Positions 1 to 32,165 of a stretch of DNA of 64,000 nucleotides are shown piece by piece (positions within the stretch are counted from its first letter, which is position 1; every line of letters begins with the position of its first letter). Source of the DNA: Elusimicrobiota bacterium (GTDB lineage Bacteria > Elusimicrobiota > Elusimicrobia > UBA1565 > UBA9628); contig CP096137.1 of NCBI GenBank assembly GCA_023213235.1, forward strand, positions 2,728,908 through 2,792,907, read 5' to 3'. A program made the position numbers and the translations under genes. The notes beneath the pieces are model-generated. The model was not told the origin of the DNA and searched no databases. It was given only the letters and a program-made list of their open reading frames with translations.

Positions 1-1
1 C

Positions 2-97
2 AACGGGGGAACGCTCTACCTCAACCCCGGCGGGCCCGGACCGGCCTGCCGGCATCGCGGCTTCGGCTATGACCCGAACCGCGGCTGCGTCCAATAG
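2..97 (+). CDS. 3' end of an upstream gene entering from the window edge (product not assignable)
   Basis: Frame 2 is open from base 2 to TAG 95-97 (NGGTLYLNPGGPGPACRHRGFGYDPNRGCVQ*). Third positions are GC-rich like the neighbours. Only 31 codons are visible. Confidence 0.3.
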   Translation, partial: NGGTLYLNPGGPGPACRHRGFGYDPNRGCVQ

Positions 98-130
98 CCC
101 GTCCCGTCCGGCTTTGATACGATAGCCGGC

Positions 131-1473
131 GTGACCTACGACCTGGTCGTCGTCGGCGGCGGCGTGACGGGCGCGGGCGTGGCCCGCGACGCGGCGCTGC
201 GCGGCCTGAAGGTCGCCTTGGCCGAGCGCGGCAAGCCGGGCCAAGGCACGACCGCCGCTTCGACGCACCTGATCCACGGGGGCGTGCGCTATCTCCTCTA
301 CGACCGCCTGACCACCCACTCCTCGTGCTGGGACGCCGGCCACATCGTGCGCACCGCCGGGGACCTGCTCACCCGTCTGCCCATCCTCTGGCCGGTGTAT
401 AAAGGACACACGCGGGGACTCGAGACCGTCGAGACCTTGTTCGCGCAGTACGACCTGTTCCAGCCGATGAAGTACGGCAAGCCCCACCTGCGCCTGACGG
501 CGGAGGCCGCGCTCAAGGTCGTCCCGGGCCTCTCGCCCGAGGGCCTGCTGGGCGCGCTCGTCTTCGACGAGTGGTGGGTCGACGCCGAGGCGCTGGCGCG
601 CCGCACGCTCGAGTCGGCCCGCGCCGCCGGCGTCGAGGTCCTGCTCGACTCGCCGGTGACCGCCGTGCTCAAGGACGGCGCGCGCGTGGCCGGCGTGACG
701 GCCGGCGGCCGCGAGCTGCGCGGCCGGATCACGGTCAACGCGGCGGGGCCCTGGATCGACAAGGTCACGAGCCTCGCGGGCGCGCGCATGCCGCTGCGGC
801 TGATGAAAGGAACGCACCTCATCTACAAGGACAAGGCGCTGACGCCGGTCGGGCTCCTGCTGGAAGCGGAGGACCGGTCGCGGTACGTCTTCGTCGTCCC
901 CTCGCCGTTGGGGACCTGGGTCGGGCCCACGGACCTTCCCGGGCCCTCGGATCCGGACCAGACGCGCACGACGGACGACGAGGTCGGCTATCTTTCGCGA
1001 TCCGTGAAACGCTACTTCAGATCATGGCCGATCAATCATGACGCAACGATCGTCGGCTCGCGCCCGATCCTGGGCCAGCCCGGCGCGGAAAAGCTGCTCT
1101 CGCGCGACTTCGAGGTCTTCGACCACGAGACGCGCGACGGCCTGCCCGGGTTCCTGACGATCGGCGGCGGCAAGATGTCGGACTACCGCGTGATGGCCGA
1201 GGCCGCCGTGGACCTCGCCTGCCGCAAGCTCGGCGTGTCGGCGGAGTGCCGCACCCACCTGAGCACGCTCGACGGCCGGCCGGTGACGGACATCCCGGAT
1301 TTCCCCACCCCGACCCGGCGCTCAAGCGCTTTCTGCGGACCAAGCCGCTGCTGCGCGAGCTGCACGCGCTGTCCTACCTCGGCGCGGGGATGGCGGAGCA
1401 CCTGCTGCGCCGCGCCGGCGGCCTCTCGCCCATCGGCGACGAGGCCGAGTTCGCGCGCCGCTACCGTCAGTAG
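131..1473 (+). CDS. glpD: FAD-dependent glycerol-3-phosphate dehydrogenase (GlpD/GlpA family), frame broken once
   Basis: GTG start. Dinucleotide fold DLVVVGGGVTGAGVARDAALRG, HLIHGGVRY, GGGKMSDYRVMAE. ORF 131-1519 degenerates into Arg/Ala-rich text after about aa 395, while ORF 1246-1473 carries a plausible C-terminus (ALKRFLRTKPLLRELHALSYLG...). The join is at a C-run near 1305-1312. Confidence 0.8.
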
Positions 1474-1925
1474 ACGCCGCGCTCCTGGTACCAGGGCACG
1501 CCGCGCAGCGAGGGCTTGAGGCAGTCGACGAAGATCACGATCTGGTGGTCGTTGAACACGTAGCCCCAGCGTCCCGTTCCCCGGATGCGCGACCCGTCGA
1601 CCTGACCGTCGCGCAGGATGTCGGCCCGGTACGTCTCCACCCGGCTCGACTCGCGGCCGCACACGGGCAGGTCGAGAGCCGGGATTTCGGCGAGATATTT
1701 CGGAACCAGCTTCTCGAGCTTCTCGGGAATCTTCTTCTCGGCTTTGGTGTAGTCGGCCATGCGCGCTTCGAGCTGGGCCAAGGAAGACCGCACGCGGTCC
1801 TCCTTGACGCGCGCCTCATTGGCGGAAGTCTCCTTCTCGAAATCGGCGGTCGCTTCGTCCTTGCCGCCGAAAACGCCGGCGCAGCCGGCGAAAAAAGTGA
1901 CGAAGAATAAGATGGCGAATTTCAT
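1467..1925 (-). CDS. lipoprotein of unknown function
   Basis: MKFAILFFVTFFAGC signal/lipobox-like N-terminus, then a charged helical stretch and a compact C-terminal domain. Packed against both neighbours. Confidence 0.55.
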   Translation of the reverse strand: MKFAILFFVTFFAGCAGVFGGKDEATADFEKETSANEARVKEDRVRSSLAQLEARMADYTKAEKKIPEKLEKLVPKYLAEIPALDLPVCGRESSRVETYRADILRDGQVDGSRIRGTGRWGYVFNDHQIVIFVDCLKPSLRGVPWYQERGVY

Positions 1926-2980
1926 GGCTCACCTCTCAAGATGGTACCGCCGCCGAGAACGAAATCGTTGTCGTAAAACACCGCGGCCTGTCCCGGCGCC
2001 GGGGCTCGTTGAGGCGAGTCAAAATTGACGTTCGCGCCATTCGGAGTCCACACAATCTCGGCGGGCGCGGGCTCATGCCGATGCCGAATCCGTACCGACG
2101 CCCGGAAGGCCCGCCCATTCCGTTCGCCGTTGAAGTTTATTCGTCCCACCTGAATGGCCCCGCTCATGATGGCGGGGGCACCGCCGACGATCAAAGCGTT
2201 TTCCTCAGGCTCCAGGCGCACGACGTACGCCGCTTCTTTGATGCCCGCCAACCCCGCGCGCTGCCCGACGGTATAGGACGCCAGACCCGTGTGACGGCCC
2301 AGCTCCTTGCCGTTCACGTCGCGGATCGGCCCCGGCGCGATGCCCGGGGCGTTCGCCTCCGCGTGCGCCGCCACGAACCCCTTCACGTCCCGGTTCGGCA
2401 CGAAGCACGTCTCCATGCTCTCCGGCTTGTCCGCCGTCCTCAGCCCGAGCTCCCTCGCCTTCGCGCGGACCTCGTCCTTCGACAAGGAGCCCACCGGAAA
2501 ATCCGCCTTCCTCAGCGCCTTCTCCTCGAGCGAGTACAGAAAATAGCTCTGATCCTTCTTCGGATCCAGCGACCGCATCAGCTTCCCGTCCTTCACCCGC
2601 GCGTAATGCCCCGTCGCCACCGCCTCGCACCCCCACGCCTCGGCCAGCGCGAGCAGGTGCCCGAACTTCAGCGAGCGGTTGCACTCGACGCACGGATTCG
2701 GCGTCGTGCCCCCGAGATACGCGTCCAGGTACGGCCGGATCACCTTGTCGGCGAACACCTCGGCCATATCCGACACGTAATGCTTGATCCCGAGCTTCTC
2801 CGCCACGCGCTTGGCGTCGTCGACGTCCGCCGGCGAGCCGCAGCAGCCGAAGCCCGTCTCCGCGCGCGCGAGCAGCTTCATCGTGACGCCCACGGCCTCG
2901 TCGCCGCGCTCGTGGACGAGCGCCGCCGCGACCGAGGAGTCGACGCCGCCGGACATCGCGACGAGGACGCGCCGGCTCAC
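1922..2980 (-). CDS. mnmA: tRNA-specific 2-thiouridylase MnmA
   Basis: PP-loop VLVAMSGGVDSSVAA, CCGSPADVDDAKRVAEKLGI, NPCVECNRSLKFG, ATGHYARV. The likely GTG start at 2980 overlaps the iscS stop (GTGA). The N-terminal 60 aa of ORF 1922-3163 is read-through inside iscS. Confidence 0.9.
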   Translation of the reverse strand: MSRRVLVAMSGGVDSSVAAALVHERGDEAVGVTMKLLARAETGFGCCGSPADVDDAKRVAEKLGIKHYVSDMAEVFADKVIRPYLDAYLGGTTPNPCVECNRSLKFGHLLALAEAWGCEAVATGHYARVKDGKLMRSLDPKKDQSYFLYSLEEKALRKADFPVGSLSKDEVRAKARELGLRTADKPESMETCFVPNRDVKGFVAAHAEANAPGIAPGPIRDVNGKELGRHTGLASYTVGQRAGLAGIKEAAYVVRLEPEENALIVGGAPAIMSGAIQVGRINFNGERNGRAFRASVRIRHRHEPAPAEIVWTPNGANVNFDSPQRAPAPGQAAVFYDNDFVLGGGTILRGEP

Positions 2981-4139
2981 GCGGCCACCTTGGCGGCGGC
3001 GCGCAGCTTCTGCACGATGGCCGGCAGAATTTTGAGGAGCCGGTCCGCGTCGGCGTCCGTGCTGCCCCAGCCCGTCGAGACGCGCAGGGAGCCGGTCGCG
3101 ACCTCGGGCGGCACGCCCATCGCCGTCAGGACGTGCGACGGGGTCGACGCGCCCGAGGAGCACGCCGGCCCGCTCGAGACGCAGACGCCCTCGAGGTCGA
3201 GGGCCACGACGAGGTGATGCCCGTCGAGGCCGTCGAAGCTGAAGTGCGAGGTGTTCGGCAGGCGCGCGGCGCCCGCGCCGTTGAGGCGGACGCCCGGAAG
3301 ACGCAGCACGCCGGCCTCGATCTTGCCGCGCAGCGCGAGCGCGTGGGCGTGCGCGGAGGACAGCTCGCGCGCGGCGAGCTCGCAGGCGAGGCCGAAGCCG
3401 ACGATCGAGGCGACGTTCTCCGTGCCCCCGCGGCGGTTCTTTTCCTGGTGGCCGGTGACGAGCGGCGAGAGCCGGACGCCGCGGCGCACGTAGAGGGCTC
3501 CGACGCCCTTCGGGGCGTTGACCTTGTGGCCGGACACGGCGACGAGGTCGGCCCCGAGCGCCTTCGCGTCGAGCTTGAGCTTGCCCAGCGACTGCACCGC
3601 GTCGCAGTGCGCCAGCGCCCCGGCCGCGCGCGCCGCGGCGAAGACCTCCGCGCAGGGCTGCAGGACGCCCGTCTCGTTGTTGGCGTGCATGACGCTGACG
3701 ACCGACGTCGCGCCGTCGATGAGCGACTTCACGGCCGCGGCGTCGGCGGCGCCGTCGGCGCCGCAGCCCGCCTCGGCGACCTCGAGGCCGCGCCGGCGCA
3801 GCTGCCCGGCCAGGACCCGGATCGCGTCGTGCTCGATCCTGGTGGTCACGACCTTGCGCCGCGCCCCTTGGTCTCGTCGAAGGCCTGCCAGGCGCCGCCC
3901 GCGATGGCGAGCGCGTCGGACTCCGAGCCGCAGGAGGTGAAGACGATCTCAGACGCGTCGGCGGCGCCCAATACCGCGGCGACCTGCTCGCGGGCCTTCT
4001 CGACGGCCGCGCGCGCGCGCTGGCCGAGCGAGTAGGTCGAGTTCGGGTTGCCGTAGCCCTCGCGCAGCCACGGGAGCATCGCGTCGACCACCTCCGGGCG
4101 GACGGGCGTCGTCGCGTTGTGGTCGAGGTAGGCCGTCAC
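2977..4139 (-). CDS. iscS: cysteine desulfurase (IscS/NifS class), frame broken once
   Basis: The N-terminal part [21 protein letters not shown]...NPNSTYSLG...[11 protein letters not shown] lies at the C-end of ORF 3846-5600. The remainder (TTRIEHDAI...[19 protein letters not shown]...[17 protein letters not shown]) is ORF 2977-3849. Join near 3860-3870. The GTG start overlaps the stop of the upstream lipoprotein gene (GTGA). Confidence 0.85.
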
Positions 4140-4843
4140 TGTCCGAAGCCGAAGCCCTTGAAGAGGTCGTCGCCGCCGGCGGCCTCTCCGGCCGGCTTCG
4201 GCTTCTCGACGGGCTTGGGCGGCTCCGCTCCGGGCAGGGGCGCGGCCTTCGCGGCGCCCTTCGACGTCACGGGCGACACGACGGTCTTGCGCACGCCCTC
4301 GGAGAAGATGATGCGGCCGTTCTTGCGGTCGTAGTAAAGGCGGAACTGGCTCTGCTTGGTCTGCGGCTCGTAGGCCTTGCCGAGGTTGTCGCGCTCCTGC
4401 TCCCAGCCGGGGTTGTAGAGCATGCGGCCGCGGATGTCGACCTTCTTGGAGAGGATCGGCAGGGAGAAGCGGATGCGGTAGAAGCCGTTCGTGTCGGAGA
4501 CGCCGGGATCGAAGGACGAGGTCGCGAAGCCCGACGGGCGCGCCTCGCCCTCCTCGAGCGTGTTCTCGCCGCTGGCCACCGCGCGCACGACCACGCCCTG
4601 CACGGGGTTGTCCTGGTAGTCGGTGATCACGCCCTGAATGTAGCCGTCGAGGAACTGGGTCTTCTTCGGCGTGGAGAACAGCAGGAACTCCGAGGTGCCG
4701 GTGAGCTTCTCGGTGATCGACAGGTCGACGATGCGGCCCTCGGCGAAGTCCTCGACGACGACGTTCTTGTTCGAGGGGCCGCAGGCGGCGAAGATCGCCA
4801 GGAAAGCCAGGGGAACGAGGCGGCGCATGCGATATTCTATCAT
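4136..4843 (-). CDS. lipoprotein with carboxypeptidase-regulatory-like beta domain
   Basis: [17 protein letters not shown] lipobox. [12 protein letters not shown]...[11 protein letters not shown] resembles the CarboxypepD_reg pattern. Pro/Lys-rich tail. The start overlaps the inferred motB stop (ATGA). Confidence 0.55.
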
Positions 4844-5600
4844 TCGTTCCCCCCGGTCGTGGGAGGAGCCGCCGACGGAGAATCCGGATTCTCGAGAGGC
4901 GCCGCGGGCGGCGCGGCGGGCGCGGGGCGGCGGCCGCCGGCTCGGGCGGGAGCGCCTTGCCGTCCTTGTCGGTCTTCTTGATCGACTGGCTCTTCACGAA
5001 GATGACGACGCGGCGGTTCTTCGCGCGACCCTCGGGCGTCGCGTTGTCGGCGACGGGGCGGTTGCCGCCGTAGCCGACGGCGCCCAGATTCTTGGCCGGC
5101 ATGCCGTACTTCTCGATGAGCAGGCGGGCGACGCTCGTCGCGCGAGCGGTCGACAGCTCCCAGTTCGAGTCGAAATAGTCGTTGTGGATGTTCTGGCCGT
5201 CGGTGTGGCCCTCGACGAGAATCTCGTGCTCGGTCGCGAGCTTGGCGAGCGCCGGCGTCAGCAGCGCGAGCTTGTCGTCGATCTCGGGCGTCGGCTCGGC
5301 CGCGCCGGAGCCGAAGAACGAGACGCCGCCCTGCTCCTCGATCGAGATCTTGAGGCCCTCCTTGTCGATCTTGACCTCGCCCTTCATCTGCCCCTTGTCC
5401 ATCATCTCCTTGATCTGCTCGTTGGCCTTCTGAACGTCCTTGTTCAGCGCGGCGGAGAGCGCGTACAGGATGACGAAGAAGCACACGAGCTCGGTCATCA
5501 GGTCGGCGTAACAGACGACCCAGGCGGGCGCGGGATGGCCGACTTTCGCGACCTTGGGGTCGCTCTCGTCGATGAAGCCCTTCGGCGCGCGCATCGGCAT
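4840..5600 (-). CDS. motB: MotB-like stator subunit with OmpA-type peptidoglycan-binding domain, tail frame probably broken
   Basis: N-terminal plug/TM with the conserved Asp ([21 protein letters not shown]). OmpA-like LVEGHTDG...[17 protein letters not shown]...GYGGNRP...NRRVVIFV. In the frame of ORF 4840-5484 the Pro/Ala tail ends TTGGNE* with an ATGA overlap onto the next gene. Join near 4925-4935. Confidence 0.8.
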
Positions 5601-5609
5601 GGGTTTTCC

Positions 5610-6427
5610 TTAGGCGGCGGCGGCCGGCGCGCCCGGGCTCCCGGGGCCGGCGGCCCCTTGACGATCAGCCGCTTCGACGGCGGCAGGTACGCCTTGAGGT
5701 TGGCCTCGACGACGGACGGCGTCGCGCCGCTCTGCAGGAGCAGCACGCCGCGGATGATGATCTCCTTGATCAGCAGCTCCTCCTCGGAGCGGGCGCGCAG
5801 CTTGCCGCCCATCGGCAGGAAGATCAGGTAGCCGGAGCCGAGGCCGTAGAAGGCGGCCGAGAGGGCCAGCGCCATGCGGCGAGGGACCTGGGCGACGTCG
5901 TCGATCGAGGACAGCATCATGATCATGCCGAGCACGGTGCCGATGATGCCGAAGGCCGGCGAGTAGGTGCCGAGCGCGTTCAGGATCTCGGCGCCGCCCT
6001 TGTGCCGCTCGCGGATGAAGCCGATCTCGGTCTCCAGCATGTTCCGGATGAACTCGTGGTCCGCGCCGTCGACGACGAGCTGGACGCCGCGGCGCAGGAA
6101 GTCGTTCTTGATCCCCTTGAGGTCGTTCTGCAGCGCGAGAAAGCCCTCCTTCTTGGCCTTCTGCGAGAGGTTCACGAAGGTCACGACGATCTCGGAGGTG
6201 TCGTCGTCGGCGTGCGACAGCAGGGTCTTCTTGATGATCTTGCCCACGCCGATGACCTGGGCGAGCGGGTAATTGACGAGCGTGGCGCAGAACGTGCCGC
6301 CCATGACGATGAACACGGCCTCCATGTTCATGAACGGCTTGAAGCCGGCCACGCCTTCGCTGTGAAAGATCATGAAGACGGTCAGGCCGAAGAACGTGAA
6401 TATGCCGGCTATCGTCGCGATGTCCAT
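5610..6427 (-). CDS. motA: MotA-like proton-channel stator subunit (MotA/TolQ/ExbB family)
   Basis: Four-TM layout. LKGIKNDFLRRGVQLVVDG, YSPAFGIIGTVLGMI, ALALSAAFYGLGSGYLIFLPMGGKL. ORF 5498-6427 would overlap motB by 100 nt. An alternative frame ends AAAA-TAA at 5610-5612, 9 nt before the motB ATG and next to an AGGAAAA RBS, so a tail frame break near 5650 is inferred. Confidence 0.8.
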
Positions 6428-6442
6428 GAGGGGTTCGGCTCC

Positions 6443-9048
6443 TTAGCTCTTCTGCCTTTCGTAGCAGCCGATCGGGTTGACGGGCTTGCCCGACGTGTTG
6501 ACGGCCTTGCGGTATTCCACCACTTTCGCGACGACCTCGTCAGCCGTCTCGCGGACGGCGATCTTGTTGCCCGTGGCGAGCAGCAGCAAGGTCTCGTGGC
6601 CGGTCTCCATCGTCTCGATGAGCTCGGCGTTGACGACGACCGCCGTTCCGTTGAGCTTATGCAGGGTTATCACCGCCGCCTCCCTGATCCTTTTGAAGAG
6701 CTTGTCCGCCCACGACTGCTTGCGGCACTCCTCGAGCTTCGCGCCGAGGTCCGCGGCCTCGCCGCGGGCCGCGTCGAGCCCGGCCTGCAGCTCCGCGGCG
6801 CGCCGCTCCGCGTCGGCCGCCGACTCCTGCGCGCGCATCGCGTCCGCGCCGAGGCGCGCCCGCTCCGCGGCGATGAGCTCCTGGGCTTCCGCGCGCGCCG
6901 CCGCGGCCTCCTCGCGGGCCGCCTGCATCGCCGCCTCCGCCTCGGCGCGGGCCGCGGCCGCCGACTCCGCGATCCTGCGCTCGGCGTGCGCCGCCGCGTC
7001 GTCGGCGCGGGCGCGCTCGGCGCGCAGCGCCGTCTCGTGCTCGGCCTTCTGCGCCGCGAGCGCGCGGCTCAGCTCCGCGCGCGAGGCCGCGAGCGCCTTC
7101 TCGGCCTGCTCGCGCGCGTTCTGCAGGATCTTGCCCGACTGCGTCTCGCGGGCCAGCTGAAGGCGCGCCGACTCGAGCGCCTCCTGCGTGCCGGAGACCT
7201 GGGCGGCCTGCGCGGTCGACAGCCGCTCGAGCTCGGTCTTCTCGGCCTCGAGCTTCGCCTTGTCGGCTTCCGCCGCCGCGACGCGGTCCTGGAACGCGCG
7301 GATCGACGCCTGCTGGGCGCCGGACTGCTCGCGCAGCCCCTCGAGCTGCTTCTCGAGCTCGAGGCGGTCGCGCAGGGCGTTCGTGCGGGCGTCCTCCTCG
7401 CGGGACAGCTTGCCCGCGAGGTCGTCGGCGCGGGACCGCTGCGCGATGACCTCGGACTCCTTGGCGAGCAGGCGCTCGCCCCACGACGCGTCCTTCTGCT
7501 GCAGCTCGCGGCGCAGGCGCTGGAGTTCCTGCTCCGCCTGCAGCGCGCGCGCGTCGGCCTCCGCCTGCATCGCGTGGCGGCGCTCGGCGAGCTCCTGCTC
7601 GAGCTCGGCGCGCAGCTTGGACTCGAGGCGCTTCGCGTCGTGCTCCGCCTCCTGGCGGAGCTGGTCGGCGATCTTGGCGGCGCGCTGGTTCAGCTCGTCC
7701 TGGGCCTGGACGCGCAGGCGCGTCTTTTCGGCCTCGACCATCTGCAGCGAGGACTGCGTCGCCTCGGCGCGCACCTCCTTCTCGCGCTCGACCCACTTGC
7801 GCTGGAGGACCACGAACTCGGCCTTGTAGCGTTCCTGGGTCTTCTCCCATGAAACGGCCTGACGCCGCATCTCGTCGAGCTGGGCGCGCGCGGCGGCGCC
7901 CTGCCGCTCGAGAGCGCTCGCGACGGCGCGCAGGCGCGTCAGTTCGGACGTCGCCTTCTCCGCGGCGTCCCGATGCTTGACGAGCTCGGCTCCGTGCTCG
8001 GCCTGGGCGCGGCGCAGGTTGGCCTCGTGCTCGCCCTCGAGGCGCTGCTTGATCGACGCGAGGTCGCGCTGGAGGCGCTCCTGGTCGGACATCAGGCGCT
8101 CCTCGCGCTCGCGCGAGCTGTGCCGCAGGGCGGCCAGGTCGCGCTCGAGGCGTTCCTGAACCAGCGCGGCCTGCTGCCGCGTCAGCGTGAGGTCGGCGCG
8201 CAGCTGGATCGACTCCTTCTCGCGGTCCGACGCGGACTGCAGGCGCGCGACCGCCTCCGCCCTCTCCTGCAGGACCTCGGTCAGCCGCTCATCGAGAATC
8301 TTGCGCTCGGCGACGGCCTTCGTGAGCTCGGCGTCGGCGCCGCGCAGCTTCTCGGCCAGCGCGCGAAGCGTCCGCACCTCGTCGTCCTTGGCGAGCGCGG
8401 CCTTCTGCCACTGCGCCTTCTCCTCGAGCCAGCGCCGCTCCATCTCCTGCAGGCGCATCGCGAAGTGAGTCTCGACCTCCTTGTCCTGGGACTCGCGCGC
8501 GGCGAGCTGGCTCTTGAGCGTCGTGACCCACGTCTCGCGCTCCTGGGCCAGGCGCGCCTCGAGCTCCTGCGCCTTGCGCTCGAGCTTGAGCTTGACGTCG
8601 GCGGCCTCCTGGTCGGCGCGGTCGCGGCGCAGGCGGTCCTGGAGCTCCTTGAGGGACACCTCGACCTTCGCGGCCGTGACGTCGTCCTCGCGGCTGCGCA
8701 TCTGGGCGAGCAGGGACTTCTCGCGCTCCTCGGAGACCTTCTTCTCGAGCTGCTCGAGCTTGGTCTCGAAGTCGGCCTTCATGCGCTCGATCTTCTCCTC
8801 GCGTTCCTTCGAGCGGTCCGGCGCGGCGGCGGGCGGGGCGCCGAACGACGGCGGCGCGGGCGGCGCCGAGAGGGCCGGCGCGCCGAACGAGGGCAGCGGC
8901 GGCAGAGAGGGGCCTTGCCGGCCATTCCGGGCAGCGGCGGAGGCATGGGAGGCTTGCCGGCCGAGGGCGGCAGCGGCGGCGGCACGGGCGCGCCTCCGCG
9001 GCCCGGAGGGAGCGGAGGCGGCGGCGGGAACTTGTCGTCAGCGGCCAT
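6443..9048 (-). CDS. polyproline N-terminus + ~650-aa coiled coil + C-terminal FlbD domain protein, frame broken once
   Basis: ORF 8779-9048 (MAADDKFPPPPPLPPGRGGAPVPPPLPPSAGKPPMPPPLPG...) continues after a shift near 8905-8915 into the frame of ORF 6443-8782 (...PPLPSFGAPALSAPPAPPSFGAPP...). This is followed by E/R/A/L/Q-rich heptad-like sequence. The last 70 aa (ITLHKLNGTAVVVNAELIETMETGHETLLLLATGNKIAVRETADEVVAKVVEYRK) match the FlbD family pattern. AAGGAGAG RBS before the ATG at 9048. Confidence 0.7.
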
Positions 9049-9072
9049 GATGTTCTCTCCTTATGATGCTCG

Positions 9073-11116
9073 TCACGCGCGGGCCTTCATGCCGTCCACC
9101 CACTGCCGAAGACCCGGATCGGGGTTCGACAGCAGGACCTGCTCGAATTGCGCGACCGCGTCGTCCTGCCGGCCGAGCTGAACGTAGCAGTTCGCGAGGT
9201 ACTGGCGGCCCTGCCAGTTCCCCCGTCCAGCGACAAAGCGTACTCGAGATACTGCGCCGCCTCTTGAAAACGTCCGGCGTCGTGGTACTGCTGGCCGGCC
9301 GCGAAATAGGGCTTGGCCGCCTCCGCCTGCGCCGGCTGGGGCGCGGGAGGCGCGGGAAGAGCCGGCGCGCCGGCGCCGGTCGGCGCGGGCATCGCGCCGG
9401 CCTGGCCGCCCCCGCGTTGATGAGATTGGCGACGGCCTGCTCGGCCGCGCGCGTGCGCGGGGCGTACTTCTCGCCGCGCTCGCTGGCGACCTCCTCGTGG
9501 AAGCCGGAGAAGGCGTCGCCGCGGCTCTGCCGGACGTTGACCTTGCCCTCCTTCTCGAGCACCTTCACGACGTCCATGATCTTCGAGCGCTCCTCCTCGA
9601 TCTGCGCGGGCGTGAGCCCCGACGCGTACTCGATCGACTCCTTGAGCAAAGACGCCGCGCCGGCCGACATGTTCGAGAGAAACTTGTTGACGACGTCGGG
9701 CGCCGCGCCCTGGAGGGCCTTGGCCATCGACTCGGTCTTGAGCTCGCGCACGATCGTCTGCATGTCGCGGTCGGGGAACGTGACGGCGTCCTCGAACGTC
9801 AGGATGAACTTCCGCACGCGCGCGTAGACGTCGGGCTTCTCGTTCTTGAGGTACTCGAGGATGTTGGCGCGCGTGAGCGTGTCGGCCTCGTCGAGCATCT
9901 GCGTGAGGCGCTCCATGCCGCCGACGACGAAATCGACGGACTCCTTGATGTCGGCGTCGATGGCCATCAGCTGCTCGCGCGTGACCTGGCGGATCTTCAG
10001 CGCCTCGATGGCGATCTTGGCCTGCAGCTCGACGGGCAGGGACGTCAGCGTCGCGCGCGCGATCTCCGGCTTCAGGTAGCTCAGCACGACGGCGACGAGC
10101 CACGGCTCGTCCTGGCGGACGAGGAAGAGGTTCGCCAGACGCTTGAAGTTCTCCTCCGTGATGTAGGTGAAAGGCTCGAATTTCTTCATGGCATCCTCGT
10201 CCTCCTCCGTCGGAACGATCGGCGGCTCCGGCGGCTTGCGCCCCAGCATGATGTCGAGCTCTCCTTTGGAAAGCTCCTCCAGCGTGTCGTCTCCCTCGTC
10301 CTCGCCGTCCTTGCCCTCGTCCTCGGGCGACTTGTTGAGGACCTCGTACTCGCCCTTCTTCGCCTCGCGCAGAGCGGAGACGTACTGGCGGAAGAAGCGC
10401 GCGAGCGGCCCGAACAGGAAGGACAGGAACAGCAGCAGAAGCAGAGCATAAAGCAGCGGCAGGTAGACGGAGGGCTTCTTGAAGTCCTCCTTCCAGTCCA
10501 CGAGCGGCGGCTTGTCGAACTTCGTCGGCCGGAACGCGACCTGATCGGGAGCGAGCTTGTACTGCGCCATCGCGTCGACGATGCGCTCGCGCACGAGGTC
10601 GAGCCGCTTCTTGTCCTTGACCGGATCGAGCACGAGGTCGTCGTGGATGACGGTGACCTGGAAGCGCTTGAACACGGGCTTGAGCGAGAACCGCTCCTCC
10701 TGCACGCCCTTCATCTGCTGGGCCTGCTGGGCCTGGCTCTGCTCGGGCCGGTCCGGCGTCTCCGGGCCCTGGGTGATCGTCTTCGGCTTCGGGATGCCGG
10801 GCAGCACGAAGGTCGTCTGCATGCCGCCCTTGGGGCCCGGCGCCTTCTCCTTGTACTTTTCGGCCACGCCCATGCCGGAGCGCTGGGACTCCTCGCTCTC
10901 GAGCTTGATCTCCATCTCCACGTCGACGAACGGCGACGCCTTGCCCTTGCCGAGGATCGGGTCGAGCACGTCGCGCGCGATCTTGAGTTCGGAGTCGGCC
11001 TTGATGTGGTTCTGCTGCTCGAGCAAGGTCAGACTGGGAGCGACGACGCCCGCCGCGGCCCGGCCGGCGGCCAGGACGGACGACAGAACGAGGACGGCGA
11101 AGACGGGCGCGCGCAT
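9073..11116 (-). CDS. FliF(C-terminal ring part)-TM-FliG(middle+C domains)-TPR fusion protein, frame broken twice
   Basis: Signal peptide. ARDVLDPILGKGKASPFVDVEMEI and FKRFQVTVIHDD resemble the FliF RBM3/collar region. TM VYLPLLYALLLLLFLSFLFGP. FliG-like DEPWLVAVVLSYLKPEIARATLTSLPVELQAKIAIE, ILTFEDAVTFPDRDMQTIVREL, FLSNMSAGAASLLKESIEYASGLTPAQIEEERSKIMDVVKVLEKEGKV. TPR tail AAKPYFAAGQQYHDAGRFQEAAQYLEYALSLDGG / NWQGRQYLANCYVQLGRQDDAVAQFEQVL is recovered by shifts at G-runs near 9410 and 9214. Stop TGA at 9073-9075. Confidence 0.7.
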
Positions 11117-11173
11117 TCCTATAGAAGTGTAGGGGGCGGTGTTACGGATTCAAGGCGGAAAATACGCATCTTT

Positions 11174-12727
11174 TTACTGCCGTATGGACTGGAGGAATTC
11201 CCGGACGCTGCGGTTGTTCGGGTCGATCTCCAGCACGCGGCGCCACACCGCGACGGCCTTGTCCTTCTGGTCCATCAGGAAGAAGGCCGAGCCCATGATC
11301 TCGAGCGCCGTCACGTTGTTGGGCTCGAGGTCGAGGACGTCCTGCGAGCGGCGCACGGCGGCGTCGTACTTGCCGTCGTAGATGGACTGGCGGGCGTCGA
11401 AGACCTTCTGGTCGATGAACGTGAACTGCTCCGGGCCCTCGAGGCGGCGGGTCGCGTCCTGGACGCCGGCTTCGCGTTCGACCATGTTCAGCAGGCCGAG
11501 GAGCTTTTCATCCCGGGGGTTCTTATTGAAAGCGTAGCGCAGCGCGTTGACGGAGACCTTGAGGTCGCGGCCGTCGACGTAGGCGATCGCGCCGCGGCGG
11601 ATGAAGGTCACGTACTCCTCGCCGCCGGTGGCCTGCGGGACGAAGTTCGTCACGTTGCCGAGGCGCGCGATCATCTGCGCGACCTGCTTGTTGCCGGGCG
11701 CGGCGTCCTGCGCCTGGTTGAAGCGCTGGGCGGCGAGCGCGAAGTTGCCTTCCTGGAAGGCCTCCATCGCCTGCTTGATGAAGTTCTTGACCTGGGTCGT
11801 GGAGCGGTCCGTGCGCGACTGGCCGAAGCGGAAGCTGACCGAGAAGCGCGTCGAGGAGCCGAGGTCGTGGATGCCCTGCGCGACGTCGAGCGAGAAGCTC
11901 TTGAAGTTGAGGCCGAAGCCGAAGTCGGTCTCCTGGATCTGCGGCAGCCCCAGCAGGCCGAAGCGGAACGCGAACCAGCGCGACACCCAGTACTCGCCGC
12001 CGAAGCGCAGGTCGGTGCTGCCGTTGAGGACCTTGTTGATGTCGGCGGCGAGCGTCAGGCGCTCCTTGAACAGGCGCAGGGAGTTGCCGAGCTTGATGAC
12101 GACGGGCAGCTTGTCGTCGGTGTCGCCGGTGCGCATCGCGAAGACGTTCTGCATGCCGAGGCCCAGGCGGTAGGCGCTGCCCATCTGCTTCATCGCGCCG
12201 ATGTCGAGCGTCTTGAAGTTGTCCGACGAGCCGCCGAGCTTGCGCGTGACCTGCTTGAGGCCCATGCCGAAGCTGACGGTCTCCGTCACGTTCTTGCCCC
12301 AGGCGAAGCCCATCGCCTGCTGCTGGTCGGCGAACGAGCCGCCGGCGGTGATCGACGCCGGCTCGTTGGTCGCCGGGTTGAGGACCACGTCGACCTGCTC
12401 GAAGCCGGTGTTCGCGAGCTGGGTCATGTGCAGCGCGAAGGTGGAGCCGCCCTTGGTCGGGTATGCGAAGCTGAAGTAGGTGAGCTTGGTCTGCTGGAAG
12501 AGGGTCGCCTGCATCGTGGTGACCTCTTTGCGCTGAACCTGGGAGAGGCCGGCGGGGTTCCAGTAGGCGGCGGAGGCGTCGTCGGAGATCGCGTAGTAGG
12601 CGCCGCCCATCGCGAGCGCGCGGCCGCCGACGCCGTAAGTCAGGAACGCGCCGGGTTGGCCGCCGCTGCCGGTTTGGGCGCCCGCCGCGGAGGCGAGAAG
12701 CGCGATAAGAGCGCACGCGCGCGCCAT
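11174..12727 (-). CDS. outer-membrane beta-barrel (PorV/FadL-like N-terminal motif) with C-terminal TPR domain
   Basis: Signal MARACALIALLASAAGAQ. GGRALAMGGAYYAISDDASAAYWNPAGL is the motif I associate with PorV/UPF0164-type barrels. Alternating beta pattern up to ...FSVSFRFGQ. TPR-like C-terminal 200 aa (DGKYDAAVRRSQDVLDLEPNNVTALEIMGSAFF...). The start was chosen at Met24 of ORF 11174-12796. Confidence 0.6.
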   Translation of the reverse strand: MARACALIALLASAAGAQTGSGGQPGAFLTYGVGGRALAMGGAYYAISDDASAAYWNPAGLSQVQRKEVTTMQATLFQQTKLTYFSFAYPTKGGSTFALHMTQLANTGFEQVDVVLNPATNEPASITAGGSFADQQQAMGFAWGKNVTETVSFGMGLKQVTRKLGGSSDNFKTLDIGAMKQMGSAYRLGLGMQNVFAMRTGDTDDKLPVVIKLGNSLRLFKERLTLAADINKVLNGSTDLRFGGEYWVSRWFAFRFGLLGLPQIQETDFGFGLNFKSFSLDVAQGIHDLGSSTRFSVSFRFGQSRTDRSTTQVKNFIKQAMEAFQEGNFALAAQRFNQAQDAAPGNKQVAQMIARLGNVTNFVPQATGGEEYVTFIRRGAIAYVDGRDLKVSVNALRYAFNKNPRDEKLLGLLNMVEREAGVQDATRRLEGPEQFTFIDQKVFDARQSIYDGKYDAAVRRSQDVLDLEPNNVTALEIMGSAFFLMDQKDKAVAVWRRVLEIDPNNRSVREFLQSIRQ

Positions 12728-12804
12728 GGCCTCAACGGGCACCAACGCGCGCGCGCAGCGCACAGGGGACGAGCCCCTCGCAATTTTAGCGGGCATGACT
12801 ATTC

Positions 12805-12969: not shown

Positions 12970-13050
12970 CGACCAGTGTAACGGAATTGTGTCGATTGTC
13001 AAGGCCTCGGGTCTGGACAACCCGAACCCGTCCTGATACACTCCGGGAAC

Positions 13051-13724
13051 ATGAGCGCTCCGGACGAGGAGGTCCAGGAAAGCCGCAAGAAGCGCACCTA
13101 CCTGCTTCTGGCGGGCGGCGCCGCCTCCCTCCTCCTTCCTTTAGCCGGCGTCGTCTACATCAAGGTCAACGAGAGCAAGGCCGCTCGCGCCCCGGGGCAG
13201 GCGTCCTCCGTCTTCGACCGCCGCGAGGGCGGCGACGCCAAGGTCGTCGTCACCCAGACCGTCACGATCAACCCGGCCGTCGCCGCTTCCGCTTCCTCCC
13301 TGCCGGTCGGCGGCGGGACGACCGAGGCTCCGTCGGGCTCGTCGCTCGATTTCGTCAAGGGCGGCTCGAACGCCTACTTCCAGGACAAGGATAAGGCGGC
13401 CGAGCCGCCGAAAGCCTCGACGCCGACCCCCGCCGCGGCCTCCGCGCCGGAGCCCGAGCCGGAGCCGGTGAAGGCCGCCGGCAAGGGCGGAAAGAAGGCC
13501 TTCGTCATGCCGCGCCTCTCGGGCACGAAGAGCATGGCCGGCTCCAACTTCAAGGGCTCGGGGGCTCGCCGAAGCCGGGCGGGATGGCGGGGATGGCGGG
13601 CGTGGCCGACCCGCAGTCGGGCAAGGGCGGCCAGGACATGGCCGACATGCTCAAGAACATCCCCGGCGGCATCAACAACCCCGAAGTCCAGAAGCTCATC
13701 CAGAAGAACAAGGCCAAGAAGTAG
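13051..13724 (+). CDS. membrane-anchored Ala/Pro-rich protein of unknown function, frame broken once
   Basis: N-terminal TM YLLLAGGAASLLLPLAGVVYI and a low-complexity periplasmic part. After a G-run near 13562 the plausible continuation is ...SPKPGGMAGMAGVADPQSGKGGQDMADMLKNIPGGINNPEVQKLIQKNKAKK*, with TAG at 13722-13724. The rest of ORF 13051-14241 is Arg/Ser-rich read-through over the next gene. Confidence 0.5.
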
Positions 13725-24357: not shown

Positions 24358-24624
24358 TCACCCTTTCTGCCACTTTGCACGCAGCTTTTCGATGTCGAAC
24401 TTCATTCGTCGAGCCAAGGCGTAGAGTCGTTCCTTCTGGTTCTGTGGAATCGCCAGCCCTTCCATCTCGATGTCATATAGAAGCCCATGCACGACCAACC
24501 CCGGCTCGCCGACACTAAGATACTCGGCGTAGGATTTCGTGGCATTTTCGTCCAGAAGAGCCCGTATCCCTTGGAAGACATTCTCGGTTTCCTGATGAAT
24601 TGTTCGTATTTCGTCGTTGGTCAT
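24358..24624 (-). CDS. putative cognate immunity protein of the EndoU toxin
   Basis: The ATG at 24624 (MTNDEIRTIHQE...) forms an ATGA overlap with the toxin stop once one A is added to the A6 run. 88 aa, helical and cytoplasmic. The upstream 21 codons of ORF 24358-24687 lie inside the toxin gene. Confidence 0.55.
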   Translation of the reverse strand: MTNDEIRTIHQETENVFQGIRALLDENATKSYAEYLSVGEPGLVVHGLLYDIEMEGLAIPQNQKERLYALARRMKFDIEKLRAKWQKG

Positions 24625-27324: not shown

Positions 27325-28041
27325 TCAGCGCAGCTCGAAGACCATCGTCGTCGCGCCGCAGTCGATCATGTCGCCTTCCCTGAGGACGACCGAGCCCGAG
27401 ACCTTGGCCCCGTTGACGACGGGATAGCCCTCGGTCACGGCGACGAGGACGAAGCCCTCGGGCTTGCGGTGGACGGAGGCCGCGACCTCGGGAGCGGAGC
27501 CGAAGAGGCCGGAGCCCTTGATCTGGATCTGCACGCGGTCGGACTTGCCGATGTAGGTGGACATGCCCTTGAGCTCGAACTCGGAGGTGCCGTCGGCGGC
27601 GCCCTTCAGGACGCGCAGCCAGCCGATCTTCTCCGGGCCCGCGGGTTTGGCGGCGGCCGCGGAGGCGGCGATGAGCTCGGCCTGCTTCTGGGGCGTGAGG
27701 ACCATGGTCTTGTCGGAGCCGGCGTCCGGTCCGCCGCCGGCGGCGGCGAGCTCGGCCTCGTTGAGGAAGACGAGGGCGTGCTTGGCGAGGCCGACGACGT
27801 CGTTGTGGTGCAGGCCGGACTTCTTGATCTTCTTCTCGTTGACGAAGGTGCCGTTCGTGGACTCGAGGTCCTCGATGTAGTAGCCCCCGCCCTCGAGCGT
27901 GAGGCGGCAGTGGTGCCCGGAGATCGCCGGGTTGTCGATGACGATGTCGTTGTCGTCCTTGCGGCCGACGGTCAAGGAGGGCTTGTCGAACGCCACTTCC
28001 TTAATGACGGCCGCGTTGAACTTCAGCAGCAGCTTCGGCAT
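27325..28041 (-). CDS. double FHA-domain protein
   Basis: N-terminal FHA: LTVGRKDDNDIVIDNPAISGHHCRLTLEGGGYYIEDLESTNGTFVN. A second FHA-like half: TYIGKSDRVQIQI...VAVTEGYPVVNGAKV...LREGDMIDCG. Confidence 0.85.
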   Translation of the reverse strand: MPKLLLKFNAAVIKEVAFDKPSLTVGRKDDNDIVIDNPAISGHHCRLTLEGGGYYIEDLESTNGTFVNEKKIKKSGLHHNDVVGLAKHALVFLNEAELAAAGGGPDAGSDKTMVLTPQKQAELIAASAAAAKPAGPEKIGWLRVLKGAADGTSEFELKGMSTYIGKSDRVQIQIKGSGLFGSAPEVAASVHRKPEGFVLVAVTEGYPVVNGAKVSGSVVLREGDMIDCGATTMVFELR

Positions 28042-28065
28042 CGAAGTCTCCCTTTGATCCTAATC

Positions 28066-28886
28066 TCAGCGCCCGAACAGGCGCGACACCAAATCCTTCA
28101 CGCCGCCGCCCCCGCCCGCGGCGGGAACCTTCGCGGCCACGATCGAGATGTTGTCCACCCCGCCGGCGGCGCGCGACTTGGCGATCAGCACGTCGACGAT
28201 CTTCTGCGGGTCCTGCTCGGCGGCGATGACGGCGGCGACATCGGCGTCGACGACCATCTTCGAGAGGCCGTCGGTGGCGAGCAGGACGAGGTCGCCGGGC
28301 AGCAGCGGGTGCTCGCCGACGTCGACCTGCACGTCCTTCTCGGCGCCGAGGGCGCGTGTCAGGATGTTCTGCAGGCTCGAGCGGGCGGCCTCGTCGGCGG
28401 TGATCTGCCCGCGCTTGACCTGCTCGCCGACGAGCGAGTGGTCCTCGGTGAGCTGGGTCAGCTCGCCGCGGCGCCAGAGGTAGAGGCGGCTGTCGCCGAC
28501 GTGCGCGACGGTCAGGGACTTGGCGTCGACGATCGCGGCGACGACGGTCGTGCCCATGCCGGCGTCCTTGGGGAAGGCGCGGCCCTTCTCGTAGATCATG
28601 GAGTTGGCGGTCTTGACGAAGAACTCGAGCTGGCGGCCGCGCGGCGAGAGGCCCGCGGTGCCGCCCTCGGGGACCATGTTCTGGGCGCCGCCGAGCATCT
28701 TGCGGGCGTACTCGACGATCGTCTTGCAGGAGATGTCGCTGGCGACCTCGCCGCTGTTGTGGCCGCCCATGCCGTCGGCGACGACGAGCAGGCCCAGGTC
28801 GGGCTCGACGGCGAAATTGTCCTCGTTGTTCTTGCGGACGCAGCCCGGATCCGTCGCGCCGGCGACCTCGACCCGGTCCTTGGTCT

Positions 28887-28890
<4 letters not shown>
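28066..28890 (-). CDS. PP2C-family Ser/Thr protein phosphatase
   Basis: MKTKDRVEVAGATDPGCVRKNNEDNF, VVADGMGGHNSGEVAS, GTTVVAAIV, VAHVGDSRLYL, LLATDGL, DNISIVAA. The ATG at 28890 overlaps the kinase stop (ATGA). Confidence 0.9.
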
Positions 28891-32082
<3,192 letters not shown>

Positions 32083-32165
32083 TAATAGCGAGGGTTTCGT
32101 GCCGGAATTCGCGAACCGCGCAAAGTATAAGAGGCTCCCCGGAGGCTGTCAACCCCGATCCGGTC

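Follow-up and report, generated by a model that had tools for sequence, protein, structure and literature searches.

The 64,000-nucleotide (nt) stretch of an Elusimicrobiota genome analysed here (contig CP096137.1; hereafter the window) is filled at positions 4136-12796 by co-directional open reading frames (ORFs) of the minus strand, in DNA of approximately 68-70% G+C, which encode parts of a flagellar-type stator and rotor together with an outer-membrane barrel. In the order of transcription the genes comprise g1 (11174..12796), coding for an outer-membrane beta-barrel of the PorV/PorQ family (approximately residues 45-325) with a TPR tail (approximately residues 330-540); g2 (9073..11116), in which a FliF-like periplasmic segment, a transmembrane (TM) helix and the FliG middle and C-terminal domains are joined in a single polypeptide; g3 (6674..9048), coding for a cytoplasmic protein with a proline-rich N-terminus and a coiled coil of about 700 amino acids (aa); the gene of a small protein of the FlbD/SwrD family (6443..6673); motA (5610..6427); motB (4840..5600); and g6 (4136..4843), coding for a lipoprotein. 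All six products reported by a first-pass annotation, which had been made from the letters of the sequence, were recovered on the minus strand; its count of six genes applies to the ORFs of the window, whereas the relatives possess seven genes, FlbD (72-76 aa) being encoded separately.

The tight gene junctions described by the first-pass annotation were found again once the reading frames had been repaired (see below): The TGA of g2 is followed by 24 nt including AAGGAG and the ATG of g3, 15 nt separate the TAA of flbD from the ATG of motA, 9 nt lie between the TAA of motA and the ATG of motB, and the TGA of motB overlaps the ATG of the lipoprotein gene (ATGA); the g1-g2 gap measures 57 nt. 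A promoter-like site is located 5' of the first gene (12975..13002, minus strand; TTGACA-16-TACACT, 10/12), which is a match to the sigma-70-like consensus only, and a further consensus match, the divergent promoter-like site at 13014-13042, points along the plus strand (four promoter-like sites observed versus 0.3 expected in shuffles). No convincing terminator was found inside the cluster.

Changes of the coding frame were located by a plot of third-position G+C content together with three-frame translation. Within the cluster, apparent single-base frameshifts affect the TPR tail of g2 (two, at ~9406-9415 and ~9217-9227), the proline-rich start of g3 (~8905-8912), the Pro/Ala tail of motA (~5649-5659; only that tail is affected) and the Pro/Ala tail of motB (~4910-4930); outside of it, the housekeeping gene iscS (~3859-3869) and the divergent upstream gene (~13560) are likewise interrupted. 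All of these breaks are positioned within G or C runs of four or five, and just two G/C runs of six bases or more exist in the whole 64 kb. In a close relative (locus L003, GCA_030696455.1; loci fetched from relatives are numbered with the prefix L) all frame-broken genes are intact and collinear. Since the breaks sit in G/C runs, strike iscS as well and are missing from the L003 orthologues, they look like homopolymer errors of the assembly rather than decay, with homopolymer compression in a long-read assembly as the apparent cause. A classification of the genes as pseudogenes was rejected on the same grounds, hundreds of orthologues being unbroken. The NCBI annotation follows the broken ORFs unrepaired (g2 is entered as a 692-aa frameshifted product).

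The FliF-FliG fusion protein

From its N- to its C-terminus, g2 consists of a cleavable-type signal peptide (recognized by inspection; about five residues of the mature protein precede the RBM3-like helix), a FliF RBM3/beta-collar-like periplasmic domain (~11038-10487), the single TM helix (~10474-10397), an acidic, disordered linker of about 60 residues, FliG_M (10123-9938; Pfam 2e-9), FliG_C with the torque helix (9853-9536; Pfam 2e-23) and a cytoplasmic TPR tail (~9330-9076), all encoded on the minus strand; the Pfam run was performed on the unrepaired ORF 9038-11116 (692 aa), which is identical to NCBI M0D55_14870 of an Elusimicrobiota metagenome-assembled genome (MAG). A family profile constructed from 45 members matched Thermotoga maritima FliG_MC with 6e-39 over the full length between the beginning of the M domain and the protein's end. 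In a Foldseek search with the AlphaFold model of g2, FliG_MC crystal structures ranked first (4fhr_B, 8e-8), followed by FliF RBM3/collar rings (E ~5e-4, target-normalised TM score 0.42-0.48). The N-terminal domain of the model displays the order helix, long strand, long strand, helix, strand, i.e. that of a ring-building motif with an extended hairpin, and two to three of the TPRs were modelled with high confidence; as the whole g2 model is of low confidence (pLDDT 63, pTM 0.26), this fold evidence is considered as supporting.

The g2 protein of the window itself stays below the Pfam threshold of PF08345 (YscJ_FliF_C); distant full-length members of the family reach 36-44 bits (cut-off 23.8), and precomputed annotations assign PF08345 to more than 25 family members. 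A profile restricted to the N-terminal domain retrieved seven sequences from the PDB, namely six FliF M-ring proteins (9e-7 to 3e-3; the matches include Salmonella FliF residues 239-438) and SpoIIIAG. According to the Pfam matches of distant members, the profile, the model and the Foldseek result, the periplasmic half of g2 is a FliF RBM3/beta-collar domain. The reported combination of FliF-like ring segment, TM helix, FliG M and C domains and TPR tail in one polypeptide is thus borne out, the FliF part by family, profile and fold: The FliG segments match their profiles directly and the FliF segment does so at the level of the family. Among the profiles proposed for a check, those of FliG_C, FliG_M, FlbD, MotA_ExbB and OmpA matched in the window and that of YscJ_FliF_C in distant family members. 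The loop of about 45 residues between the two hairpin strands (TFVLPGIPKPKT) is predicted to be disordered, yet belongs to the best-conserved parts of the family (LPG[IV]P.PK).

Several parts of the canonical proteins are missing. RBM1, RBM2 and the first TM helix of FliF are absent from g2 (no PF01514 match), as is FliG_N, for which only weak matches overlapping the M region were obtained; the FliG homology begins at the middle domain. The fliG equivalog model TIGR00207 is not reached (104.7 bits, cut-off 226.7). At the FliM-binding motif EHPQR, EHPQ is replaced by [ED][ED]PW (Trp in 76/76 sequences) and R160 by Glu (76/76), with still other residues at these positions in distant members; the Gly-Gly hinge is invariant in the family. 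Judged by its sequence, g2 is therewith devoid of every element that links FliF/FliG to the export gate, the rod and FliM/FliN. Since the nearest canonical FliGs of the g2 FliG part come from scattered phyla, nothing points to a recently copied resident flagellar gene; a donor lineage was sought and none was obvious. Covalent FliF-FliG fusions made in the laboratory are described in PMC10941966 as still able to form rings.

The MotA/MotB stator and its putative rotor interface

The assignment of MotA and of MotB with a plug, a TM aspartate and an OmpA-type domain by the first-pass annotation was confirmed. MotA is a flagellar-type stator A subunit (MotA_ExbB 1.4e-26, the match being obtained with the unrepaired ORF 5498-6427) with full-length similarity to Clostridium sporogenes MotA (6ysf/8ucs, 2.6e-51), PomA (3e-43) and the Bacillus subtilis and Vibrio stators; its best structure and model matches are all flagellar stators, not TolQ/ExbB. 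MotB comprises a plug (MotB_plug 8e-11), a TM helix with the conserved Asp and an OmpA-type peptidoglycan-binding domain (OmpA 6e-16). Both proteins remain below the respective equivalog cut-offs: MotA matches the MotP/MotA/PomA models with 1e-64 to 1e-60 (215 versus 394 bits for MotP; 209 versus 340 for MotA), and MotB obtains 138 bits (cut-off 283). By these scores, both subunits fall into the right superfamily and subtype and constitute a divergent branch. Two of the distant loci, L085 and L086, contain two MotB-like genes each.

For the residue analysis, the proteins of the loci were aligned to E. coli references (n=55 for MotA/MotB, n=76 for the FliG-like proteins); the numbering relies on sequences which we take to be those of E. 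coli, in which the canonical residues were found at the canonical positions. The equivalent of MotB Asp32 is present in 55/55 proteins (one sequence with an ambiguous residue), MotA Pro173 in 51/55 and Pro222 in 55/55. The position of MotA R90 is occupied by Lys in 54/55 and that of E98 by Gln (40), Glu (11) or Asp (4), Glu being present in more distant clades. On the rotor side, the equivalent of FliG D288 is Glu in 76/76 sequences, the neighbouring Arg287 position contains Lys or Arg, and R281 is substituted by Gly in 74/76, a loss that extends over the whole family including distant members; the D289, K264 and R297 positions are uncharged in the window's clade, and distant clades also keep the K264 and D289 equivalents.

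In the flagellar motor, MotA E98 is described to pair with FliG R281 and R90 with D289 (PMC7564593), and a pairing of MotA R90 with FliG D288-D289 is reported in PMC12505986. By the residue counts at R90/D288 and R281, the R90 pair persists in the form Lys-Glu and the E98 pair has lost its rotor partner, MotA-98 itself having relaxed to Gln in the window's clade. Such a pattern agrees with an interface of MotA and rotor that is real but modified, without being proof of it. An analysis of covariation between MotA position 98 and FliG position 281 gave no clean signal: Gly281 is family-wide and MotA-98 varies by clade.

The outer-membrane barrel and the putative giant surface proteins of relatives

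The first gene of the cluster had been interpreted as coding for a PorV-like outer-membrane barrel with a TPR tail, which proved correct. In the Pfam search g1 yielded TPR_19 (9e-9) in its tail and weak UPF0164 and FadL-type matches; its intact orthologue in L003 was recognized by the PorV_fam model NF033709 (1.9e-30, 106.6 bits, cut-off 90) and stayed below the specific equivalogs (26 versus 250 bits for PorV, 51 versus 220 for PorQ). The gene is situated immediately 5' of the fusion gene in nearly all loci with sufficient flank, being absent only in L075. The TPR tail, which comprises about 200 residues after the barrel, is predicted to be periplasmic and has a weak match to the FlcA C-terminal model (E 0.0085).

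In 25 loci of relatives, a T9SS (type IX secretion system) type-A-like sorting domain is encoded 5' of the barrel gene, immediately in 24 of them and at a distance of about 8 kb in L088, the near neighbour of which is a 1,948-aa FG-GAP/fn3 ORF with no detected C-terminal domain (CTD). The giant ORF is present in all 22 sufficiently flanked loci with a fusion protein no more than ~50% identical to the reference, plus L049 (55%) and the more distant L085 and L087. In the 24 loci the giant ORF terminates 240-510 nt (mostly 300-450 nt) before g1 on the same strand. The ORFs, which span approximately positions 1-8100 in loci L049-L052, L058-L083, L085, L087 and L088, run off the 5' end of the fetched DNA, mostly after 2,300-2,700 codons or more (1,232 and 1,588 in two shorter flanks); giant called genes encode 14,454 aa in L085 and at least 3,689 aa in another locus.

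The giant proteins end in an fn3-like repeat and the sorting domain, with no Pfam match in the body. The last ~100 residues are strongly conserved (NYPNP...ITIYDLLGYVV...WDGKNGLG..VSKGGYIVRVKA...RKVGVIH), and in two of the four C-terminal domains tested they match TIGR04183 (T9SS type-A) with 24 and 27 bits (cut-off 23). The domain also resembles the CTDs of PorU, PorZ and T9SS-dependent proteases and, more weakly, matches FlgD_ig and Por_Secre_tail. Its recognition required NCBIfam, a laxer threshold and queries confined to the short C-terminus; a first Pfam scan of the last 1000 residues of the L085 giant at E <= 0.001 gave no match. Two other distant loci contain CHU_C or Por_Secre_tail cargo, PorV genes or a PorP/SprF-like barrel beside the cluster (CHU_C cargo in L084 and L086). 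No sorting-domain gene was detected in the 64-kb window or adjoining the cluster in the window's own clade.

At the Bacteroidota surface, PorV/PorQ barrels bind sorting domains of this kind according to PMC5562754 and PMC12365241. The adjacency of the giant sorting-domain gene to the PorV-like barrel gene in relatives suggests that the motor would act on a surface protein anchored in the outer membrane; the PorV-like barrel probably holds the giant surface protein.

The coiled-coil protein, FlbD and the lipoprotein

The g3 protein starts with a proline-rich stretch (MAADDKFPPPPPLPP...) and continues, as indicated by composition and heptads, as a coiled coil; in the L003 orthologue the core contains 74% A/E/L/R/Q/K and 2.6% P+G, and its heptad periodicity is about five standard deviations above shuffles. 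There was no Pfam or NCBIfam match and, by inspection, no signal peptide or TM segment. The proline-rich start reads FPPPPPLPP in the window's clade and is represented by PPPLP-type motifs in distant members. The N-terminus (~9000-9048) begins with DDKFPPPPPLPP, which is reminiscent of the 'FPPPP' ligand motif of the EVH1 type in eukaryotes; even the low-G+C distant relative L084 has a related sequence, EFPPVPPLP (position 12088).

FlbD is identified by PF06289 (5.8e-17, 61.5 bits, cut-off 24.7), the match lying at the end of the unrepaired ORF 6443-8782. At window positions 6650-6720 the g3 ORF reads in frame into FlbD with no intervening stop, and FlbD keeps its own GGAGG and GTG start. FlbD is a separate gene of 65-76 aa in relatives, overlapping g3 in a different frame in the closest one (L003) and being 15-250 nt apart from it in others; the read-through in the window represents either another indel error or a real fusion of the lineage. 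The first-pass annotation of one polyproline/coiled-coil/FlbD protein was hence right in all three parts and has to be modified in that FlbD possesses its own start and is a gene of its own in relatives. It is positioned immediately 5' of motA in all loci that have it. In a 2026 preprint SwrD/FlbD is reported to form hexameric rings and, when lost, to leave Bacillus with a lower torque, with MotA as a predicted, unvalidated partner.

It had also been proposed that TPR and coiled-coil elements tie the ring to the outer membrane. Neither g3 nor the TPR tail of g2 can do so because both are predicted to be cytoplasmic: g3 for want of a signal peptide or TM segment, and the g2 tail since it comes after the cytoplasmic FliG_C. 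Among the TPR and coiled-coil elements, only the TPR tail of g1 is predicted to be periplasmic.

The lipoprotein g6 consists of a lipobox (...FAAC), a beta-sandwich core, a disordered Pro/Ala/Lys linker and the C-terminal sequence DLFKGFGFG; the latter (DLFKGFGFG(Q), window 4136-4165) is invariant among the homologues. There are 308 of these, all named ones from Elusimicrobia, and g6 follows motB in 48 loci. The previous description as a carboxypeptidase-regulatory-like lipoprotein was correct as regards the lipoprotein, and the family label is weakly supported: There was no Pfam or NCBIfam match, and a low-confidence model gave only weak Ig-like/transthyretin-like matches, none of them significant. 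The conserved C-terminal peptide is free and encoded near two TPR-tailed proteins, which suggests a docking pair of peptide and TPR.

Distribution and conservation of the gene cluster

In total, 417 homologues of g2 were detected, nearly all of them 650-690 aa long with the TPR tail in a single frame. All named ones belong to Elusimicrobia or Elusimicrobiota apart from one entry, RLE71917.1, filed as 'Thermoprotei archaeon'; it sits on a 4.9-kb contig, and its archaeal label is probably a binning error. With this exception, no carriers in other phyla were present among the named relatives. A scan of one genome per GTDB species revealed the fusion gene in 125 species; the best 80 of the 125 are all Elusimicrobiota MAGs, with fusion identities of 39-100%. 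A search of 1.8 billion cluster representatives retrieved 81 clusters below 1e-30 with full-length members down to ~25% identity, the named ones among the distant members again being Elusimicrobiota or unclassified 'bacterium'.

The same arrangement was sought in other genomes, and all related loci with enough flank (about 55) share the order PorV-like barrel, fusion, coiled-coil protein, FlbD, MotA, MotB and lipoprotein. The most conserved protein is MotA (68-96% identity) and the least conserved one the coiled-coil protein. The minimal set common to all lineages comprises the barrel-TPR protein, the fusion, MotA and MotB: One distant lineage has no coiled-coil protein, FlbD or TPR tail on the fusion, and in another one motAB is non-adjacent and a Roadblock/LC7 gene comes after the coiled-coil gene. 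The operon is clearly under selection. Regulators flank some of the distant clusters (L084 15798-16145; L086 6480-8408 and 14096-14737), namely a Roadblock/LC7 MglB-like protein, a histidine kinase with response regulator and a receiver-MerR protein.

Proposed function and alternative explanations

The first-pass annotation had left two alternatives, a reduced piece of a dispersed flagellar regulon or a non-flagellar envelope-spanning machine, and had stated that no other flagellar genes were nearby. The latter statement holds for the scanned part of the window: 40 candidate ORFs beyond the cluster contained no flagellar gene (the scan did not extend to about 14 short ORFs, 100-180 aa in length, at 23-60 kb); nor were any found among the called genes of the inspected loci of relatives (88 fetched loci, ~1.3 Mb of flank). 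According to Uzun et al. (2022, bioRxiv 10.1101/2022.07.08.499144), most free-living Elusimicrobiota have no flagellar structural genes and yet possess motAB, flbD and fliG, a few genomes of the phylum containing complete flagellar gene sets. Since the gene order is conserved, the stator residues are kept, g2 has no FliG_N, EHPQR or RBM1/2 and the preprint reports this distribution of flagellar genes, the evidence favours the non-flagellar envelope machine, and the dispersed regulon is unlikely. In such a machine, FliG_N, FliM/FliN and the type III export gate would not be needed because each g2 subunit carries its own FliG_M and FliG_C.

Domain assignments, residue conservation, gene order and the neighbouring giant genes are shown by the data above; for ring formation, rotation, coupling across the periplasm and the cellular role the following mechanism is proposed. 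Stators of the MotA5B2 type would be anchored to peptidoglycan via the OmpA-like domain of MotB and conduct ions past the MotB aspartate, the cytoplasmic face of MotA engaging the FliG_C-like torque helix of g2. The g2 protein would assemble into an inner-membrane ring via its FliF RBM3/beta-collar, as FliF does, and present FliG_MC to the stators; ion flow would either turn the g2 ring or drive the stators around it. FlbD may assist the stator, as thought for SwrD/FlbD in Bacillus and spirochaetes, and the proline-rich coiled-coil protein could form a cytoplasmic accessory structure together with the g2 TPR tail, a contact of TPR and peptide being a guess. Candidates for the periplasmic connection are the conserved collar loop, the TPR tail of g1 and the C-terminal peptide of g6. 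The output on the outer membrane would proceed via the PorV/PorQ-like barrel with its periplasmic TPR tail, the barrel gripping the sorting domain of the giant protein.

The chances that the cluster encodes a functional non-flagellar, ion-driven motor of the MotAB/FliG type acting on the outer membrane are, as far as can be judged from sequence, about even, and any particular output is less probable than the motor itself. Among the outputs, the movement or tensioning of a giant surface adhesin, resulting in gliding-type motility or dynamic adhesion, appears the most likely. Tentatively, and with less than an even chance, the system would represent a third kind of rotary envelope machine beside the flagellum and the T9SS/gliding motor, in which a homo-oligomeric FliF(RBM3)-FliG ring is turned by MotAB with no type III export apparatus, rod or filament and works on a PorV-like barrel with a giant surface fibre or adhesin anchored by its sorting domain.

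Several points weigh against the proposed motor. Its evidence is drawn entirely from sequence and gene order. The main physical difficulty is that an inner-membrane ring is combined with no obvious axle leading through the peptidoglycan to the outer-membrane barrel. No partner is assigned to g6, the coiled-coil protein or the TPR tails, confidence in the g2 model is low by both pLDDT and pTM, and the FliF matches in Foldseek are modest. Moreover, four of the five classical charged residues of FliG are not conserved in the window's clade, and the link to outer-membrane cargo is taken over from relatives in which the identity of the fusion protein to the reference amounts to ~26-55%.

The main rival to motility or adhesion as the output is that the same machine energises the secretion or surface attachment of the giant sorting-domain protein, i.e. 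a T9SS-like pathway with a different motor, which is less likely. The membership of g1 in the PorV/PorQ family and the type-A giant genes or CHU_C cargo genes adjoining distant clusters would agree with it, as would the description in PMC8986121 and PMC12365241 of one Bacteroidota motor and ring serving both secretion and gliding. The called genes of the inspected loci, however, contain no homologue of SprA/Sov, PorU/PorZ or GldK/N; barrels of the PorV type act as shuttles or anchors rather than as a channel through which a protein of 14,000 aa could pass; and the window's clade retains the operon with no adjacent cargo gene.

A Tol-Pal/TonB-type envelope system driven by the proton motive force, or a mechanosensory or signalling device, with the ring as a non-rotating docking platform, is improbable. 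MotA does belong to the MotA/TolQ/ExbB superfamily, peptidoglycan-binding, lipoprotein, TPR and coiled-coil parts are combined in Tol-Pal/CpoB as well, and response regulators or a Roadblock/LC7 protein are encoded beside some of the distant loci; yet MotA is far closer to flagellar MotA/PomA than to TolQ/ExbB, and the torque-helix domain and the Lys-Glu pair of the interface are conserved. Furthermore, the cluster encodes no TolA- or TonB-like protein, and its coiled-coil protein has no membrane anchor.

Even less probable is the first of the two original alternatives, in which the cluster would be the normal rotor and stator of the organism and belong to a dispersed flagellar regulon, the other genes of which are located in different parts of the 3.8-Mb contig. 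It is true that flbD-motA-motB is a standard flagellar sub-operon, that MotA and MotB are of flagellar type and that a few Elusimicrobiota genomes have complete flagellar sets. But a g2 protein with neither FliG_N, EHPQR, RBM1/2 nor the first TM helix could not provide the usual FliM/FliN docking or housing of the export gate, its fliG equivalog score is less than half of the cut-off (105 versus 227 bits), the cluster pairs with a PorV-like barrel and never with flagellar genes in the 88 fetched loci, and most carriers are reported to have no structural flagellar genes. Finally, it is scarcely credible that the cluster is the functionless, decaying residue of a former flagellum, with the five apparent frameshifts in ~9 kb as real pseudogenisation, in view of the breaks in G/C runs that hit iscS too (such runs of six or more bases occurring just twice in 64 kb of 65-70% G+C DNA), the intact orthologues in hundreds of assemblies and the conservation of gene order and catalytic residues across 125 species.

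Comparison with known systems

The cluster resembles the core of the flagellar motor in its flagellar-type MotA/MotB with Asp, prolines, plug and peptidoglycan-binding domain, in FliG_M and FliG_C with Gly-Gly hinge and torque helix, in the FliF RBM3/beta-collar followed by a TM helix, and in the position of FlbD beside motAB. In contrast to this core, it is without FliG_N, EHPQR and RBM1/2, a signal peptide replaces the first TM helix, an extra cytoplasmic TPR tail is attached, R281, D289, K264 and R297 are not conserved in the window's clade, and the partner is a PorV-like barrel; genes of the export apparatus, C-ring, rod, hook and filament are not nearby and are reported to be absent in most carriers.

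With the T9SS/gliding machinery of Bacteroidota (GldLM/PorLM, PorKN/GldKN, PorV/PorQ, SprB) the system would share the combination of an ion-driven 5:2-type motor, a large ring (a putative one here), a PorV/PorQ barrel and a giant type-A protein (25 loci), and some distant loci contain PorP/SprF-like genes and CHU_C cargo. The motor, however, is MotAB instead of GldLM, the barrel has a TPR tail, and the putative ring is an inner-membrane FliF/FliG fusion, whereas that of the Bacteroidota is the periplasmic, outer-membrane-attached PorKN. Neither SprA/Sov, PorU, PorZ and GldK/N nor the GldLM/PorLM motor and the PorKN/GldKN ring were encountered among the called genes of the inspected loci, no dedicated search having been made for the motor, the ring and SprA/Sov. 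In addition, the Elusimicrobiota are outside the group with a described T9SS.

The Agl-Glt machinery of Myxococcus consists of a proton motor of the MotA/TolQ family, outer-membrane barrels, TPR proteins and the long cytoplasmic coiled-coil protein AglZ. The same types of parts are present in the cluster, and a Roadblock/LC7 (MglB-like) gene is found beside one distant locus; unlike the stator described here, that of Agl resembles TolQR and is not known to work with a FliG partner or a FliF-like ring. Glt homologues did not turn up, no dedicated search for them having been made. Periplasmic stator scaffolds of high-torque motors are built by the TPR proteins PflA/PflB and the lipoprotein FlgP of Campylobacter and by the spirochaete collar protein FlcA. 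These, too, are TPR proteins and lipoproteins encoded with MotAB and thought to position it; they surround, however, a complete flagellar basal body, and the likeness is limited to generic TPR repeats.

The study of Uzun et al. (2022) apparently dealt with the same genes in the same phylum. The role of the genes was called unclear or enigmatic there, gliding or twitching was speculated upon and FlbD was read as a transcriptional activator. It is a gene count at KEGG level, in contrast to the present analysis, which adds the fusion, the barrel, the seven-gene operon and the giant neighbour. The statement of the first-pass annotation that no description of such a machine was known has to be restricted accordingly: The presence of the genes in non-flagellated Elusimicrobiota was already noted in 2022, and what is added here is the architecture, the operon and the link to a giant protein, with neither the architecture nor a mechanism described in that preprint. 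In full-text searches of the literature no description was found of the fusion architecture, the operon, the conservation in 125 or more species, the modified interface or the link of PorV-like barrel and giant protein; a paper on MotAB evolution and a preprint on the flagellum of the last bacterial common ancestor contain nothing on the cluster.

FliG and MotAB are regarded as a signature of the flagellar motor; here they are encoded in a conserved, selected operon of a mostly non-flagellated phylum. If the proposed function is correct, the flagellar rotor would be reducible to a ring of a single polypeptide (FliF RBM3 and FliG_MC) with no need of FliM/FliN, export gate and rod, and flagellar torque generation would have been reconnected to a giant surface protein and its outer-membrane anchor in type IX style, a combination of two machineries thought to be separate. 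The cluster would then provide a natural test case for the evolutionary relation of the flagellar motor module to the secretion core: A rotor-stator module that is selectable alone bears on an origin before or independent of the secretion core, or on salvage after flagellar loss. It would also be a candidate motility apparatus for free-living (including magnetotactic) Elusimicrobiota, which would thereby possess a hitherto undescribed way of moving over surfaces or of rotating an appendage.

Genomic neighbourhood and further observations

Two flanking genes are possibly associated with the cluster. The divergent gene at 13051..13703 on the plus strand encodes a small membrane protein with one TM helix and a low-complexity region, is present in about 29 loci of the window's clade and has no family match. 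A small lipoprotein of 152 aa (1467..1925, minus strand; about 30 loci, no Pfam match) closes the co-directional string and directly follows g6 in loci with no iscS/mnmA; by eye only, it resembles the globular part of type II secretion pseudopilins. In relatives, mnmA, with or without iscS, usually follows the cluster.

The neighbours in the window comprise an FAD oxidoreductase, mnmA, iscS, an EamA transporter, an outer-membrane barrel, succinyl-CoA synthetase and 2-oxoacid:ferredoxin oxidoreductase, furthermore a CHASE2-kinase-PP2C fusion, an FHA protein, sensor kinases and a lytic transglycosylase. The CHASE2-Ser/Thr kinase-PP2C fusion (1,360-aa ORF) and the FHA protein are encoded at 27325-32148 on the minus strand, 5' of the genes for the oxidoreductase and for succinyl-CoA synthetase. 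The cluster is preceded by the same neighbourhood in locus L001 (62% identical; positions 1-2225), with kinase and phosphatase as separate genes; the conserved order hence reaches well beyond the cluster.

Positions 24515-26935 (minus strand) encode a protein of 806 aa with a trypsin-like peptidase and a C-terminal bacterial EndoU nuclease domain, in a dip of G+C content to 0.58-0.63, which looks like a polymorphic toxin. The region 38407-64000 differs in its G+C content (0.53-0.61 versus ~0.70 elsewhere) and begins with a large serine recombinase (38407-40122, minus strand); it further contains a KaiC-like ATPase, an Hsp70-like protein and an AAA ATPase, an MTES_1575/DUF559 nuclease, and PIN, DUF4062 and DprA/SLOG-like proteins, and is probably an integrated element or defence island.

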